A stretch of 64,000 bases of DNA from Parcubacteria group bacterium GW2011_GWA2_51_10 (GCA_001004265.1 LCQS01000017.1:2530-66529); one strand, 5' to 3'. Shown: positions 5,010-64,000, numbered from the stretch's first letter. Notes: generated from the letters alone by a model not told the origin. Made by a program: numbers and translations.

Positions 5010-6380
5010 CTACTTGGATTTGAGGAGGAAGGCGCCGAAGGCGCCGGAAACGAGGCTTTGGTTGTAGAGTTCGGGCGAAAATGGATCGGCAAATTTCCGC
5101 TCGGGTTCCTTGCGTGTTTCGTCGCACCAAACGCAGACAGCATCCCACGTTTTGGTCCACCAAGGTTCAGAGTAATCATCGCCAGGTGTAAAAACCTCTA
5201 CGCGCTGATCCCACGGAGTCGGCACGTACTCGCTGTCCTCGATTCTGTATTCCTGTGGCTGTTCAGTAAATGGCAGTTGCTGCTCGACCGATTCGCCCAC
5301 AGCGGGTCCGAATTCATCGTCGTTGTACGCACCGATTGGGACATCTTTATAAACATCGCCTTCGTACTCCTGCCGCGGGTTATAGAGAGGCTCTGGTGCA
5401 TTGAGAGATCCAGGAAAGAACTCATCGTCGCTGTACGCACCGATTGGGACATTTTTGTACGTATCTTCAGAATACTGCTGGTCCTGATTGTAGCGCGGTG
5501 CGACTTCCGCGCTGTCTTGGCTCCAGATATTGTTCCACAGACTGCTCCAGAATCCTTCAGCTGGCGGCTGTGGCATGGAGCCAAGGTCGTCTCCAGAAGA
5601 TGGGAACGGCGAGCTTGAGTCGTCGGTTCCCCACGAGACCGCTCTTTCCGTACCGACTGATGCGCGAGGCGGCTCGCTCCTCGAGGTAGTAAACCAGCTT
5701 GCCACGCGCTGAAAAAAACCACTCGAATCTTCATCCGGCAAGGGTTGGTATGCTTCGCCATCGGCCGGATATGGAGAATCCCAGCGCGGCTCGTCGCTGG
5801 TGACTCGCACATTCCAATTTGGAGTTCTTTCCTCAACCGGAGCTCGCCATTGTGTCTGAAGCGACCCCCACTCTCCCGGCTCGAGACCACCGGTTGCCCT
5901 TACTGTCTCAGCAATCTCACTGTTGCTTGGTCCCTCTACGCATTGGAGGTAGCGATAGTAATCATCTTCGCCAGGGTATCTATCCGCACAGGTAATATCA
6001 ATCGTACCGTATAATTGCCGCTCTACGCGCGGTGCTGCAGGTGCTTCTGCTGTTGAGATTCGATACTTTTCAGGATTATCGATGCAGTCCTTTAGTTCAT
6101 TCCAATCGCCGTTCCTTTGATATAGGTTATTGCACTCAGGATATGAAGGCGAGTTGTAATTAATTCCGGAAACTGATTTCGCAGACGTCTGTGCTCCGCC
6201 AGACGGAGCAGTGGGTACGCGCGCACCTACGCTCGGTGTTTTTTGTAGAGTGCTTGGAGCCGGAGTTGTCGCTATTCTCCGGCTGATACAGTTAGCAACT
6301 AGTGCATCTCCGAGAAGGCTTAGCCTGTTCAATAATTCCGCCGGCCCGCTTGCCAGTACTTGGCGATGCCGCAGACTCAA
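5010..6380 (-). CDS. low-complexity secreted-type protein with internal tandem repeats (possibly the 3' part of a frameshifted gene)
   Basis: 456 aa. Repeats YKNVPIGAYSDDEF / YKDVPIGAYNDDEF. No signal peptide of its own. Overlaps the 3' end of the upstream ORF by about 89 nt. Confidence 0.5.
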   Translation of the reverse strand: MSLRHRQVLASGPAELLNRLSLLGDALVANCISRRIATTPAPSTLQKTPSVGARVPTAPSGGAQTSAKSVSGINYNSPSYPECNNLYQRNGDWNELKDCIDNPEKYRISTAEAPAAPRVERQLYGTIDITCADRYPGEDDYYRYLQCVEGPSNSEIAETVRATGGLEPGEWGSLQTQWRAPVEERTPNWNVRVTSDEPRWDSPYPADGEAYQPLPDEDSSGFFQRVASWFTTSRSEPPRASVGTERAVSWGTDDSSSPFPSSGDDLGSMPQPPAEGFWSSLWNNIWSQDSAEVAPRYNQDQQYSEDTYKNVPIGAYSDDEFFPGSLNAPEPLYNPRQEYEGDVYKDVPIGAYNDDEFGPAVGESVEQQLPFTEQPQEYRIEDSEYVPTPWDQRVEVFTPGDDYSEPWWTKTWDAVCVWCDETRKEPERKFADPFSPELYNQSLVSGAFGAFLLKSK

Positions 6381-15266: not shown

Positions 15267-17525
15267 GTGAAGAAAAAAAATCGCAGTAAAAAAACGAGTG
15301 GAGCAGAAAATGATGACGAGATAGCGCACGAACGTCGAGTCAGTGGTGAAGCGCTCCGTGGAGTTTCGGCAGTTTTTTTTGTAGCAACAGCGACTTTCCT
15401 CATTCTCGCGCCGTTTGATATAGCAGGAAAGGCCGGATCGCTTCTCTACACGTACCTTTCATGGTTATTGGGCGTTGGTTATTTTCTTCTACCGCTTTCG
15501 CTCGTGCTGCTTGCGGTTTTGATATTCAAATCATTTGAAAAAAGTTTTGGAGTTATACAGCTCGCGAGTATGTTCGTTTTTTTGCTCTCCGGTTTAGGTA
15601 TGATAAATCTCGCTTTTCCGGGAGACGGAGGCGTCTTGGGCGCAGCAGTTACGAAACCTATGGTCGCGACAATCGATACGGCGGCCACCGTCATCTTTCT
15701 CGTCGCATTTACGATCGCATCGCTCGTCCTTGCGTTTGACATCCATCTCGGAGCGGTCCTTGTCTCTCTCCAAGAGCGATTGCGCGGCATTCGGAAGACC
15801 GGGGATGTTTCTGACGATATCTCACTCGCCCCAGTCATCGGATTGCCTGAAGGAATTGGGATCACAGAGGATGAAAGTCTGCGCGATCAATCAGGAGAGA
15901 GCGCCGCACCATCACCCGATACAAAGGCATTGGGCACGGACAAGTTGTGGCCCAAAAAAGATAGCGGGGATGGTTTTTCTGTTATTCTCGCGACGGGAAG
16001 CGCGTACACGCCGCCGCCCCTTTCGATCTTGAGTAAGAACAGGGGGAAGCCGGAGGTAGGTGACGTGAAGGCGAACATGAATATTATCAAGCGCACGCTC
16101 CAAAATTTCGGCATCCAAGTTGAGATGGATGAGGCATCGATTGGGCCGACGGTAACGCGCTATGCCATGAAGCCTGCAGAAGGTGTTCGACTTTCGAAAA
16201 TAGTCGCACTCCAAAGCAATTTGGAGCTCGCGCTCGCCGCTTCCCCGCTGCGTATCGAGGCGCCAATACCCGGAAAATCTCTCGTGGGAGTCGAGGTGCC
16301 GAACATATCACGGACAACGCTTGGGCTTGCACCGCTCCTGTCTGATACTGCGTTCGTGCAATCGGACAAACCTCTCCTCCTATCTCTTGGGCGTTCAATT
16401 ACAGGAATGCCTCATTTTGCGGATCTCGCGCGAATGCCACACATTCTGGTGGCGGGCGCCACGGGCGCGGGTAAGTCGGTGACGATACATAATTTTATTG
16501 TCTCAATGCTCTATCGCTGCGGACCGGAGCGTTTGCGCTTCATTATGATTGATCCGAAGAGGGTTGAGCTCACCGTATATAATTCTATACCTCATCTCTT
16601 AACGCCAGTCATCACTGACGCCAAGAAAGCAATACTCGCAATCAAATGGCTCGCAAAGGAAATGGAACGCCGCTACAACATCCTCGAGACTGAAGCAGTG
16701 CGTGACATCGCTTCGTATCATCAAAACGTCGTCGCACCGGCGCTTGAGAAAGCTGCGAAAAAAGGGAGCGAGCAAGCCCTGCCGGAGGCGATGCCGTATA
16801 TCGTGGTCATTATTGACGAACTTGCCGACATGATGTCGGCATATCCGCGCGAGCTTGAAAGCGGCGTCGTGCGCCTCGCACAGATGAGCCGCGCAGTGGG
16901 CATACATCTAATACTTTCCACACAAAGGCCGTCGGTCAAGGTCATCACCGGGCTTATCAAAGCGAACATTCCGGCTCGTGTGGCGCTCCAGGTTGCCTCC
17001 CAAATCGACTCCCGCACTATTCTCGATACGGGAGGCGCCGAAAAGCTGCTCGGGGCGGGAGACACGCTCTTCCTCTCTGGAGAGATGTCGAAGCCAAGAC
17101 GCATCCAGGCACCGTTTACATCAGAGGCAGAAGTCAAGCGTGTCGTTGCTCATATCGCTGCGGGAAGCGAGGGCATTTTGCCGAGCGAAATAGATTTCAG
17201 CGAAACAAGAAACGACACGGACTCATTATTCTCTTCGATGATAGAGAGCGATGGTGACGACGATGCACTATATGGGGAAGCAAAGCAAGCCGTCGTGGAA
17301 GCGGGCAAAGCGTCAACGTCGTACTTGCAGAGAAAATTGCGTGTCGGCTACGCACGGGCTGCGCGCCTCATCGACCTTTTGGAGGAGCGCGGCGTCATCG
17401 GTCCTGGCGATGGCGCACGACCACGCGAAATAATCGGCCTGCCTGCCGGCAGGCAGGCGCTGGACAACGCGGATGAACTTGTCGCTACCGCCGAAAAAGA
17501 AGACGGGTTTGACGAGCGATTATGA
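15267..17525 (+). CDS. ftsK: DNA translocase FtsK/SpoIIIE
   Basis: 752 aa. N-terminal TM helices. Walker A GATGAGKSVTIHNFIVSML, IMIDPKRVEL, and the FtsK motor motifs. GTG start. Confidence 0.9.
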   Translation: MKKKNRSKKTSGAENDDEIAHERRVSGEALRGVSAVFFVATATFLILAPFDIAGKAGSLLYTYLSWLLGVGYFLLPLSLVLLAVLIFKSFEKSFGVIQLASMFVFLLSGLGMINLAFPGDGGVLGAAVTKPMVATIDTAATVIFLVAFTIASLVLAFDIHLGAVLVSLQERLRGIRKTGDVSDDISLAPVIGLPEGIGITEDESLRDQSGESAAPSPDTKALGTDKLWPKKDSGDGFSVILATGSAYTPPPLSILSKNRGKPEVGDVKANMNIIKRTLQNFGIQVEMDEASIGPTVTRYAMKPAEGVRLSKIVALQSNLELALAASPLRIEAPIPGKSLVGVEVPNISRTTLGLAPLLSDTAFVQSDKPLLLSLGRSITGMPHFADLARMPHILVAGATGAGKSVTIHNFIVSMLYRCGPERLRFIMIDPKRVELTVYNSIPHLLTPVITDAKKAILAIKWLAKEMERRYNILETEAVRDIASYHQNVVAPALEKAAKKGSEQALPEAMPYIVVIIDELADMMSAYPRELESGVVRLAQMSRAVGIHLILSTQRPSVKVITGLIKANIPARVALQVASQIDSRTILDTGGAEKLLGAGDTLFLSGEMSKPRRIQAPFTSEAEVKRVVAHIAAGSEGILPSEIDFSETRNDTDSLFSSMIESDGDDDALYGEAKQAVVEAGKASTSYLQRKLRVGYARAARLIDLLEERGVIGPGDGARPREIIGLPAGRQALDNADELVATAEKEDGFDERL

Positions 17526-17737
17526 GTTTCACTGTATTCTATTCTTATCCCGGCAGCACTTTTGCAAAACGTGTTCAGATCGTATCAACGTACGCAAATT
17601 CGCAGGCAGCCGAGGCAGCGCGCTTCGCCCAGCAAGGTATGGCCTATTCGGCCACGCGCGCTGCATGTGATATAGCGGCAAAAGTGCAGCGGGATGTAAG
17701 ACTTTCTAAGCTCATTACATTCGCTAACAAAATCTAA
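17522..17737 (+). CDS. small hypothetical protein (overlaps the ftsK stop by 4 nt)
   Basis: 71-aa ORF in an ATGA overlap. No motifs. Confidence 0.25.
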   Translation: MSFTVFYSYPGSTFAKRVQIVSTYANSQAAEAARFAQQGMAYSATRAACDIAAKVQRDVRLSKLITFANKI

Positions 17738-21955: not shown

Positions 21956-21981
21956 TTCCTTCAGCCAAGTGAAGAAATTTC

Positions 21982-22091
21982 TCCTCGCGGAGTCTCTGGA
22001 AGCGCGCGAGATTGGTTCCGCCGAAGGCGGATCGCGCGCTGAAGCTTAAGGACAAATTCCGCTGGAGAATTTGTCCGGGCTCCGCGAGGAG
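21982..22091. repeat. structured repeat element, copy A (second copy at 40798..40905)
   Basis: Outer inverted repeat ctcctcgcggag / ctccgcgaggag. Inner stem gcgcgcga...tcgcgcgc enclosing a hairpin. Perfect 10-bp stem ggacaaattc-cgctgga-gaatttgtcc. Confidence 0.7.
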
Positions 22092-22110
22092 AAATTTTCG
22101 AACGCCTTTT

Positions 22111-22311
22111 CTATTTTTGAATGTACGGAAGCAATCCCATAAACCGCGCACGCTTAATAGCCGCCTCGACTCCTCGCTGCTGCTTTGCGGTGAGTCCTGT
22201 TTTCTTGCGGCTGACAATGCGGCCATGCGGGTTCATGAACTGCCGGAGCAAGTCGACATCTTTATAATCGACGAACTGAATATCATTTTGTGTCAAAATA
22301 TTACTACTCAT
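22111..22311 (-). CDS. rpsR: 30S ribosomal protein S18
   Basis: 66 aa with DYKDVDLLRQFMNPHGRIVSRKKTGLTAKQQR, canonical S18. Confidence 0.92.
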   Translation of the reverse strand: MSSNILTQNDIQFVDYKDVDLLRQFMNPHGRIVSRKKTGLTAKQQRGVEAAIKRARFMGLLPYIQK

Positions 22312-40667: not shown

Positions 40668-40696
40668 AAATAGTATGAAGTATAGGGTATGGGGTA
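40668..40696. repeat. heptamer tandem repeat (GGTATGG-like) upstream of secE
   Basis: agtatga agtatag ggtatgg ggtatgg ggtaaaa. Confidence 0.55.
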
Positions 40697-40797
40697 TGGG
40701 GTAAAATGCAAACGCCAATCTAAAAACCCCTCGCGGGGTTTCGTAAACTATACTCCCGCTTTGTGCAAAGTCAACTCCATATTAGCGAGGAGCGTAT

Positions 40798-40905
40798 GTT
40801 CTGCGGAACCTCTGGAAGCGCGCGAGGTTGGCCGGTGTGCAGCGCCGTCGCGCGCTGAAGCTAAGGACGAATTCCGCTGGAGAATTCGCCCGGGTTTCGT
40901 GGAAC
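40798..40905. repeat. structured repeat element, copy B (see copy A at 21982..22091)
   Basis: The core tctggaagcgcgcgag...cgcgcgctgaagc-aaggacgaattc-cgctgga-gaattcgccc is shared with copy A. A compensatory A-T to G-C change preserves one stem pair. Confidence 0.7.
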
Positions 40906-40924
40906 ATGCACTCCGGAGCGTCTT

Positions 40925-41746
40925 TTATTTAATTTCGTACGTCACCGTCACATTTGAGACGATTTTGTTTTCGCCGACAGGGACGTCGGGAGCTGGCGCT
41001 TTCATAGGAGCGGCAAGGGCCCGCTCGTCGCCACCCATTCCGTATGCGTAGTACGGCATGGGACCTTCACTTTCGTAGAACCCGACGACGCGCACGAGCG
41101 AGACACCGAGCGAGCGCGCCAAAACTTCCGCTTTTTCCTGCGCCTTTTTGATCGCCTTATCGCGCGCTTCCGCTTTGAGTGCATCTTCATCGTCTATTGT
41201 GAACGAGAGGCCTGAAACTTCGGACGCGCCGCGCGAACCAACACCGGAGAGAAGATCGCCGGCTTTCTTCGTGTCGCGCACTTTCACCGAAAGCGTTTGC
41301 GAGACTTGGAAGCCAGTCAAAACTTGTTTGCCCGGTGGACAAAATTCGCTTCCCGCAGGGCACACGCTTCGACTCCATTCATACTGCGGCTGAACGCTGT
41401 AGTCGGTCGTTTTAATATCCTTCTCGGGAACGCCTGCCTGCTTCAAATATGCAATGATGTCGTTCCCCTTTTTCGTCGCCACGTCTTGCGCGTCTTTTAC
41501 TTCCTTAGCGGTCTCGCGCACCGCAACGCTGAAAGTCGCTGTGTCTGGCACCGCAAAAACCTCTCCGTCGCCACTTACAGTGATCGTGTTTGTCGCAGGA
41601 ACGCCGCTTCCAATAAAACGCAGCGCCTTCAATTCGCCAACTGTAGAAACTAGGAGAAATAGCGCTAGGACGCCGAGTGCCGTCGCGGCCATCGTTCGCG
41701 GCCAATGTGTTGCCTTGATAATCTCGCGGACAGATTGTTCTTCCAT
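40925..41746 (-). CDS. SIMPL domain (DUF541) periplasmic protein
   Basis: 273 aa. N-terminal TM, then the SIMPL-like ITVSGDGEVFAVPDTATFSVAV...KAIKKAQEKAEVLA pattern. Confidence 0.65.
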   Translation of the reverse strand: MEEQSVREIIKATHWPRTMAATALGVLALFLLVSTVGELKALRFIGSGVPATNTITVSGDGEVFAVPDTATFSVAVRETAKEVKDAQDVATKKGNDIIAYLKQAGVPEKDIKTTDYSVQPQYEWSRSVCPAGSEFCPPGKQVLTGFQVSQTLSVKVRDTKKAGDLLSGVGSRGASEVSGLSFTIDDEDALKAEARDKAIKKAQEKAEVLARSLGVSLVRVVGFYESEGPMPYYAYGMGGDERALAAPMKAPAPDVPVGENKIVSNVTVTYEIK

Positions 41747-49060: not shown

Positions 49061-49104
49061 ACTTGAACCGGCCTGCCTGCAGACAGGCAGGCACTATAGC
49101 ATTC

Positions 49105-63513: not shown

Positions 63514-63644
63514 ATTTTCTATTTTCCCACAACGCCGCGCTTGCGCCATCTGTGCGTTTGAGGGTGTCTCGCAGACCGGCGGGCCGAGAGTCAGCGCTGC
63601 GCCAGCAGCGCTAGAGCGGCGACCCGAAAACGTACAGAAGGTAC

Positions 63645-64000
63645 TTAGCGCGGCAACCGCTCCATTTTGCCCCAATCCTCGCCAATGGCGGCTTCTGCAA
63701 CGATGGGAACTCCACTCAACTCCTTTTTCGAGACGACCGTCTCCATGATATGGCGGAGCTCGTGCGCAAGGCCCTCGGCGCGGCTCTTTTCTATTTCGTA
63801 CACAAGTTCGTCGTGCACGGTGAGCACGAGTCGCGCGCTCTTCCGCAAGTTTTCTTTTTCGAAAAAAGTATCGGCGCGCACCATCGCGAGCTTGATGATA
63901 TCTGCCTGTGTTCCTTGGAGAGGCGCGTTAACCGCCATCCGCTCCGCCTGCGAACGCAGATTTGGAAGCGCCGACTTGAAGCCCGGAAAGTAACGCCTTC
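63645..64000 (-). CDS. polA: DNA polymerase I, C-terminal fragment (gene continues beyond the window end)
   Basis: NAPLQGTQADIIKLAMV...RLVLTVHDELVYEI...VPIVAEAAIGEDWG is the Pol I motif C / C-terminus. Confidence 0.85.
   Translation of the reverse strand, partial: RRYFPGFKSALPNLRSQAERMAVNAPLQGTQADIIKLAMVRADTFFEKENLRKSARLVLTVHDELVYEIEKSRAEGLAHELRHIMETVVSKKELSGVPIVAEAAIGEDWGKMERLPR

Follow-up and report, generated by a model that had tools for sequence, protein, structure and literature searches.

Introduction

MITEs are defined as non-coding elements of <500 bp with terminal inverted repeats, and their transcripts are predicted to form stable stem-loops (PMC10969869). Rickettsia palindromic elements (RPEs) are known for in-frame residence inside coding genes, and a further repeat family has been described that resembles and replaces transcription terminators (PMC10969869). 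A full-text search found no literature on repeat or structured non-coding elements in CPR/Patescibacteria genomes. In the REP/REPIN systems, an HUH enzyme encoded in one copy is presumed to recognise the repeats in the form of single-strand hairpins.

The present analysis concerns a structured element between efp and rpsR of Parcubacteria group bacterium GW2011_GWA2_51_10, here called copy A, and its relatives. It lies in a stretch of 64,000 nucleotides, referred to as the window. EF-P and SSB assign this stretch to the organism named, an uncultured groundwater bacterium of the Candidate Phyla Radiation (CPR). A sequence-only reading of the window had taken the element for one of two copies of a repeat family under selection for secondary structure and, possibly, for a novel small RNA. 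Below, the fold, the distribution and the genomic sites of the elements are described, and the readings that they allow are weighed against each other.

Structure and covariation of family 1

Copy A lies 19 nt past the efp stop (21955) and just short of the rpsR stop codon (22111-22113, - strand; Table 1). On the + strand it forms a three-way junction in the order P1, CUGGA, P2, GAAGCUUAA, P3, P1'. The basal stem of P2, AGCGCGCGA / UCGCGCGCU (22001-22009 / 22032-22040), is invariant in copies A, B and C, and the tip hairpin of P2 reads UCCGCC-GAA-GGCGGA in copy A. The predicted fold has an MFE of -75 kcal/mol (z = -8.0), and 0/200 shuffles were as good.

Copy B is the only other family 1 copy in the 64-kb window. 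It is near-identical to copy A in the core and adopts the same three-way-junction fold, with an MFE of -63.8 kcal/mol (z = -4.6; 0/200 shuffles as good). Its 3' end comes close to 40925-40927, where the SIMPL/DUF541 gene stops on the - strand, and a promoter-like site of secE stands just past its 5' end on the - strand. The region from this promoter-like site into the secE 5' UTR (window 40718-40774 (-) and 40680-40703) has features of its own: a hairpin and T-run (AAACCCCGCGAGGGGTTTTT) follow within ~10 nt, and three CCCCATA-like heptamers come next. Judged by sequence, the hairpin and T-run may be a leader terminator or attenuator of the secE-nusG operon. The 3' arm of copy B looks like half a parS site with two central bases missing, a resemblance noted by eye only and regarded as coincidence.

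A scan of metagenomes with a 19-base core pattern returned 64 loci, two of which carried the rest of the element (copy B again, L029; copy C, L041); the scan was incomplete, as it missed the L007 contig with its exact match. Copy C is situated on a 139-kb scaffold (L083), between the last gene of the type IV pilus operon and tpiA. Its genome is that of GW2011_GWA2_51_10, the neighbouring Pgk being 100% identical to that organism's. Copies A, B and C stand at three unrelated loci of one genome. Beside copy C, a perfect loopless palindrome of 16+16 bp (GAACGGCTCATTTGGC / GCCAAATGAGCCGTTC) occupies L083 8912-8943, with a third GAACGGCT copy just upstream; this palindrome could serve as an operator or represent a further repeat.

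In the alignment of A, B and C, 17/44 pairs are changed on both sides and 97.7% of the cells are paired. None of 500 shuffles reached the observed pairing (0/500), and slid controls were 30-49% paired. The core segments are 85-100% identical, but outer P1 and the tip of P2 show random-level identity and are fully paired (Table 1). Peptide coding by the three copies was rejected, since their indels, at the P2 tip (lengths of 21, 21 and 29 nt) as well as within J2/3, are not multiples of three. The 5' box AGCGAGG was also considered as a genome-wide signal and is not enriched (12 occurrences vs 10.6 expected).

What the sequence-only reading had reported on structure was borne out. All sequence features that it listed for copy A are present, and the outer inverted repeat, given there as 12 bp, is in fact longer, with 18 nt of perfect complementarity (21975-21992 / 22080-22097) and 21 bp when G-U pairs are included. 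The second copy with a common core is copy B, and the compensatory A-U to G-C change in P3 between A and B is real (alignment columns 91/109), accompanied in copy B by one A-C mismatch that had not been mentioned. The inner hairpin, said to differ in sequence and to stay pairable, corresponds to the fully paired P2 tip. Random, non-compensatory divergence of further copies had been named as a sign against the proposal; with copy C added, the pairs changed on both sides speak for compensatory divergence. A repeat family with selected secondary structure is upheld by the conserved three-way junction and by these real compensatory changes.

Table 1. Members and segments of the elements. Coordinates refer to the window unless a locus is named; R2 denotes a covariance model described in the text.
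Feature	Coordinates	Strand	3' end to stop codon	Description
Copy A, whole element, family 1	21975-22097	+	13 nt (rpsR)	covariance-model match 21972-22100, 146 bits
Copy A, P1 5' arm	21975-21995	+		partner 22077-22097; 18 perfect bp followed by G-C, U-G, C-G, U-G
Copy A, J1/2	21996-22000	+		CUGGA; GGA/GCA bulge common to the superfamily
Copy A, P2	22001-22040	+		9-bp basal stem, internal loop GAUUGGU, variable tip hairpin 22017-22031
Copy A, J2/3	22041-22049	+		GAAGCUUAA; one U fewer in B and C
Copy A, P3 hairpin	22050-22076	+		GGACAAAUUCC-GCUG-G(A)GAAUUUGUCC; 10+1 bp with bulged A and GCUG loop
Copy A, P1 3' arm	22077-22097	+		directly after P3
Copy B, whole element, family 1	40790-40913	+	~11 nt (SIMPL/DUF541)	covariance-model match 138 bits
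Copy B, P1	40794-40811 / 40892-40909	+		G-U pairs valid on + strand only
Copy C, family 1	L083 8756-8891	-	9 nt (pilus gene)	
Copy D, family 2	63545-63640	+	7 nt (DNA polymerase I-like ORF)	three-way junction, conserved GA/GA internal loop in P1; 125 bits
F	L083 4688-4786	-	4-6 nt (T2SSF)	R2 ~64 bits
F86	L086 3541-3637		4-6 nt (T2SSF)	R2 ~64 bits
F87	L087 1499-1595		4-6 nt (T2SSF)	R2 42 bits; third species
G87	L087			R2 40 bits
C86	L086		~5 nt (pilus gene)	R2 31 bits, E = 1e-5; site orthologous to C
X87	L087 119-220		7 nt (T2SSE)	
J1/2 + P2 base + internal loop				identity between A, B, C 90-100%
P2 3' base + J2/3				identity between A, B, C 94-100%
P3				identity between A, B, C 85-96%
Inner P1				identity between A, B, C 75-88%
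Outer P1				identity between A, B, C 15-45%
P2 tip				identity between A, B, C 17-43%

Short forms, family 2 and searches elsewhere

Three covariance models were used, namely R1 (A, B and C), R2 (R1 rebuilt with F and F86) and R3 (family 2). R1 matched a shorter relative, F, in the same genome as A, B and C (29 bits), and F86, at the orthologous site of another species. Together with the R2 matches listed in Table 1 and with family 2, these elements define a superfamily (A, B, C, F, F86, F87, G87, C86 and family 2) that is present in at least four related genomes. Its members are 95-135 bp long, and A, B, C, F and D all lie in ~85 kb of one genome.

The short forms follow the plan P1, CUCUC, GGA/GCA bulge, GCGC-GNCG-GCGC, GAGAG, GGAGC, A/U-rich P3 with an NGCN loop, P1'. 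Family 1 is this plan with an enlarged P2. In F87 the tip stem is GGCC/GGCC instead of GCGC/GCGC, a double compensatory change. The alignment of eight members, which is fitted to the model and hence leans towards structure, has 35/44 pairs changed on both sides and 94% of its cells paired, a result reached by 0/500 shuffles.

Family 2 is represented in the window by copy D, which ends near the stop codon (63645-63647, - strand) of an ORF that we take to be DNA polymerase I-like from a reading of its C-terminal sequence only. In the closest relative (L009; EF-P 88% identical), the efp-rpsR spacer holds a three-way junction different from that of copy A, and this junction also belongs to family 2. 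Its core is 84-88% identical to that of copy D, and 5/8 outer P1 pairs are changed on both sides. Family 2 occupies different loci in the two species. Same-strand matches of R3 to F87 (28 bits, E = 2e-5) and to F (25 bits, E = 2e-4) place both families in one superfamily.

Searches further afield returned little. With the three family 1 copies, nhmmer gave nothing further in the relatives. The junction pattern gave two chance matches only in 185,579 species genomes, a collection evidently without the source genome. In viral contigs, three patterns gave chance matches inside coding sequence or none. The suggestion of the sequence-only reading that the family is new agrees with Rfam 15, which holds no match to it. 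At the gathering score the whole window contains six tRNAs only; around copy A, at E<=10, the single match is a chance one to CRISPR-DR21 (15 bits), and 61 kb of related loci (C, F, F86, C86, F87, G87 and the L009 family 2 element) gave no match at E<=1. Among small ribozymes, the hammerhead core motif (CUGANGA...GAAA) fits neither the long nor the short forms by eye, and the Rfam searches were empty for other families.

Other repeats were noted in the window. A perfect palindrome, GGCCTGCCTGCCGGCAGGCAGGC, is present in two copies, 87% identical (17432-17461 and 49066-49095), one of them at the 3' end of ftsK; it may represent another small repeat or terminator family. A long-range inverted repeat of 16 nt, its arms 112 nt apart, lies between ftsK and the gene that follows (17548-17696); the fold is branched (z ~ -2.8) and neither covariance model matches it. 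An 81-nt direct repeat, 73% identical and 108 nt apart, is found at 5310-5498, inside a 456-aa ORF without a Pfam match.

Placement and strand

In 9/9 measured members the 3' end lies 4-13 nt from a stop codon (Table 1), and this closeness is kept even where the spacers are 260-660 nt long (B, C and C86). The structured strand is antisense to the gene of that stop codon in 10/12 members, the two sense cases being G87 and a weak L016 match. Replication strand was considered as the cause of this bias and rejected, since F87 and G87 lie 1.2 kb apart in opposite orientations.

G exceeds C on the model strand in 8/8 elements tested (+0.06 to +0.18), against -0.03 to -0.07 for the surrounding window strand. 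G-U pairs outnumber A-C mismatches (17 vs 4), and all seven elements folded both ways (A, B, L009, D, C86, F and F86) have the lower MFE on the model strand; unlike the MFE, the z-scores are not always better there. The G>C bias, the excess of G-U pairs and the lower MFE together indicate that, within the terms of the models, the strand that matters is the modelled, structure-bearing one, be it as RNA or as DNA.

Occupied and empty sites

Comparison of related genomes shows that the sites of the elements are labile. The T2SSF-pseudopilin junction is filled in L083, L086 and L087 and consists of a 5-nt spacer in L088. Likewise, L083 and L086 carry an element between the pilus gene and tpiA, where L087 has a spacer of 7 nt. 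Four different contents were found at the efp-rpsR site. The present genome has family 1 there and L009 has family 2; in L089 a plain 14-bp hairpin stands between homologous flanks, and L014 carries ordinary terminators along with another insert. These differences occur between relatives with EF-P 87-88% identical. At the orthologous sites of C and C86, the 5' tail and the 5' arm of P1 are shared but the cores are different.

F, F86, F87 and G87 read in frame as extensions of prepilin leaders, adding 30-40 residues. Pseudopilin leaders mostly have 7-13 aa, ending RG|VTLID, vs 38-40 aa at the element-bearing site, where in-frame reading through the element, beginning at an ATG at the outer end of P1, accounts for the greater length. 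F, F86 and F87 constitute the first ~30 codons of the pseudopilin. Their conserved ATG is the outermost triplet of a perfect helix of 15-19 bp and stands 10-12 nt after the T2SSF stop, a placement that suggests enforced translational coupling or a mis-called start. The closing helices of these three elements can be aligned, and each is perfectly self-complementary. G87 extends the leader of another pilin-like gene in frame, in the orientation opposite to that of F87.

Most members possess perfect or near-perfect terminal inverted repeats of 15-21 bp, weaker ones being found in B, C and C86. Flanking direct repeats of 5-7 nt were detected in 4/11 members (three by automatic scan at >=5 nt, against ~6% expected, and F by reading): GGAGC(GT) at B, TGCGGAG at F, CGGAGC at F87 and CGCTCG at X87, with a CG(G/A)AGC-like motif in common. 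Elsewhere such repeats are absent or 2-4 nt long; they are short, imperfect and not always next to the helix. No transposase, recombinase, HUH or reverse-transcriptase domain was found by a Pfam scan of 20 window ORFs, and the stretches examined in the window and at the other loci, within the ~85 kb of the genome surveyed, showed no transposase, HUH or recombinase gene.

Two further observations concern related inserts. X87 has a perfect inverted repeat of 19 bp (CCGGCGGACCTTTTTGCCG), directly flanked by CGCTCG and following the T2SSE stop, and matches the family 2 model with 18.5 bits; it is the cleanest case of inverted repeats with a duplication. In the Kaiserbacteria-like loci L014 (8100-8290) and L016 (8880-9040), a structured insert beside rpsR is flanked by a second, decayed version of the last rpsR codons (LLPFIQK*). 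The superfamily hairpin GCGC-GACG-GCGC is present in the L016 insert, which gives a weak model match of 18.8 bits.

Discussion

The dispersed copies, the homologues in relatives, the labile sites, the in-frame residence, the direct repeats and the lack of a promoter suggest, as far as sequences can tell, that the elements are inserted. Our preferred reading is a lineage-specific superfamily of small non-coding, non-autonomous MITE/RPE-like insertion elements of a Kaiserbacteria-like Parcubacteria clade, a proposal in which we place about as much belief as doubt. The long closing helix P1 (15-21 bp) would take the role of the terminal inverted repeats and enclose a conserved core of two hairpins, P2 with its GGA/GCA bulge and the A/U-rich P3 with its NGCN loop. 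A trans-acting, genome-specific protein would recognise the folded core on a single strand, either DNA or RNA, and would copy or exchange the elements between sites. Reading of the core by such a protein would keep the cores uniform in any one genome while they vary from genome to genome. The outer closing helix would be specific to the site, with pairing as its sole requirement. Inserted elements would be transcribed within the host mRNA, where they would probably work as strong hairpins at 3' ends or between cistrons: copy A would do so where relatives have the efp/rpsR terminator hairpin, and F-type copies would bury the start codon of the next gene.

The sequence-only reading had treated the ends of a MITE, with terminal inverted repeats and target-site duplications, as an account that would displace its own. 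This account holds in part: the closing helix acts as terminal inverted repeats and direct repeats flank the four members given above, but the sequence of the inverted repeats is not conserved between copies. The divergence of outer P1 counts against an insertion element, since a transposase binding to terminal inverted repeats would depend on their conservation. Moreover, the P2 tip, variable yet paired inside a constant core, speaks against copying followed by decay. The perfect helices of F, F86 and F87 point to pairing that is maintained in situ, by host-level selection or by palindrome-templated repair, and not to a dead insertion. Copy-and-decay is thus left with three oddities, the paired and site-specific outer helix, the variable core hairpin and the helices perfect in situ, so that a host-level role and structure-reading mobilisation are both kept as candidates. 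Candidate host roles are a 3'-end hairpin that replaces the terminator at A and a start codon buried in P1 at F. Insertion into the loop of a pre-existing terminator was considered as the source of P1; it fits the position, but neither the variable P2 tip nor a G-U strand antisense to the terminated gene. A broader formulation, which we rate as a speculative minority view, sees the elements as CPR-specific, strand-specific folded modules whose core would be read by a genome-encoded protein and in whose P1 and P2 tip selection would preserve the pairing site by site; they would serve either as host RNA at gene ends, for processing, coupling or insulation, or as a structure-guided mobile element that rebuilds its terminal helix from local sequence.

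A host function could also be the whole explanation. The elements would then be cis-acting hairpins of 3' UTRs or intercistronic regions, not actively mobile, working as terminator, 3'-end stabiliser, RNase III site or coupling device, and they would evolve fast and be homogenised within the genome. The short distance to a stop codon in every measured member, long spacers included, speaks for this. It also agrees with copy A in the exact place of the relatives' terminator hairpin, between homologous flanks, with copy B between the SIMPL gene stop and the secE promoter, with the outermost ATG of F, F86 and F87 in its perfect helix, and with pairing kept in situ between orthologues. Conversely, the strand with the G-U and G>C bias is antisense to the mRNA in most members (see above), and on the mRNA strand the helix of B has several A-C mismatches (-55 vs -64 kcal/mol). 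By reading, no U-tract follows P1 on the mRNA strand; a scan for intrinsic terminators found no terminator-like site at A or B, where by reading neither strand is U-rich beyond P1, and ordinary intrinsic terminators occur elsewhere in the genome. Presence and absence at orthologous sites and near-identical cores at unrelated loci would in any case need spread between sites. Purely cis-acting host RNAs are in our view rather unlikely. The small RNA gene suggested by the sequence-only reading finds less room still. Independently transcribed from the structured strand and trans-acting or cis-antisense, such RNAs would bind a protein or target through the core and leave the outer helices free to covary; strong covariation, the sharply conserved core and a one-strand G>C and G-U bias typical of functional RNAs are consistent with this, and read-through from efp could make copy A. 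Three GGA motifs at unpaired or loop positions of family 1 may point the same way, being reminiscent of CsrA/RsmA-binding motifs. However, a promoter scan of the structured strand found nothing sigma70-like ahead of A or B, and the aligned 5' flanks are, by reading, without a conserved -10/-35. Near B the scan marked a single promoter-like site, that of secE (TTGACT-16-TATAGT, 40774-40747, - strand). No terminator-like site follows B, and near A the only + strand matches (22173-22194) are within rpsR, ~75 nt beyond the end of the element, which leaves the proposed gene without a usable terminator. Some members are found within an operon or within coding sequence, either orientation relative to genes occurs, and whether an orthologous site is occupied depends on the species. 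The locus of copy A is not conserved in close relatives, the cores differ between the orthologous sites C and C86, and the junction pattern revealed no family outside this organism among the species genomes searched. An independent sRNA, which we consider very unlikely, is the least supported of the RNA readings.

A different view of the same strand bias is a folded single-stranded DNA recombination site, comparable to integron attC or to an HUH/Xer substrate, with a recombinase that would read structure and a few core bases. Since such reading of one strand would result in a variable but paired helix and a fixed position after ORFs, the conserved structure and variable sequence of P1 argue for it. 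So does the strand-specific fold, which is on the strand antisense to the upstream ORF, the same relation as in the bottom strands of integron attC sites; short direct repeats at both borders, right after stop codons, fit as well. Against this stand the ends of A and B, which lack the core sites RYYYAAC / GTTRRRY, and the conserved sequence of the central core, unlike attC. No integrase or HUH gene was seen nearby, the neighbours are housekeeping genes (rpsR, secE, tpiA and the T2SSF pilus-operon gene) and not cassettes, and the elements are single, without arrays. We hold this explanation to be highly improbable.

The family shows that CPR genomes, very small as they are, carry dispersed structured elements at gene ends and even inside prepilin leaders. 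A core that stays constant beside a closing helix that differs from site to site, yet is paired in every case, is an unusual pattern and is not explained by classical MITE biology. If mobile, the elements point to a structure-reading enzyme; if functional RNAs, they would represent a new motif through which CPR bacteria control 3' ends or intercistronic regions. On either reading they can cause mis-annotation of gene starts, as in the 40-aa 'leaders'.

Comparison with known systems

Integron attC sites share with the present elements the precedence of structure over sequence, a strand-specific fold, a position directly after ORFs and similarity within a genome. Unlike attC, the elements have no R'/R'' sites, integrase or cassette array, and their central core is conserved, not their ends. 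REP/REPIN sequences with their RAYT are likewise extragenic palindromes just after genes, homogeneous within a genome and different between species. Here, however, there is no GTAG-type tetranucleotide, the fold is branched and not a doublet, and far fewer copies were seen; a RAYT or Y1/HUH domain was not found among the genes scanned in the incomplete genome. The repeat family that resembles terminators (PMC10969869) differs by its simple hairpin, in contrast to the three-way junction described here, in which no U-tract follows the helix on either strand by reading.

RPEs are closer in several respects. They too are structured repeats of ~100-150 bp, fall into several families, occur in a small, host-dependent genome and reside in frame in protein genes. 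They belong to a different phylum, differ in base composition and are presumably unrelated in sequence. In-frame cases are confined here to cleaved leader peptides, and most copies abut stop codons. To our knowledge, the contrast in conservation between core and helix has not been described for RPEs. The in-frame likeness is read as similar working, not as membership.

Prokaryotic MITEs, such as QMITE2 of Coxiella, the Correia elements of Neisseria and ERIC, resemble the present elements in their length (<500 bp), their lack of coding capacity, the inverted repeats at their ends, a dispersed and mostly intergenic distribution and the very stable stem-loops predicted for their transcripts; short flanking direct repeats in some copies may be a further likeness. 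In contrast to these MITEs, terminal complementarity is conserved here and terminal sequence is not, and an internal three-way-junction core is conserved. The present elements are also G+C-rich, not A+T-rich, with no parent IS or transposase found in ~85 kb and a low copy number in the surveyed stretch. Because the conserved terminal repeats of MITEs are lacking, the elements are filed as a variant that works like MITEs and RPEs and is a member of neither.
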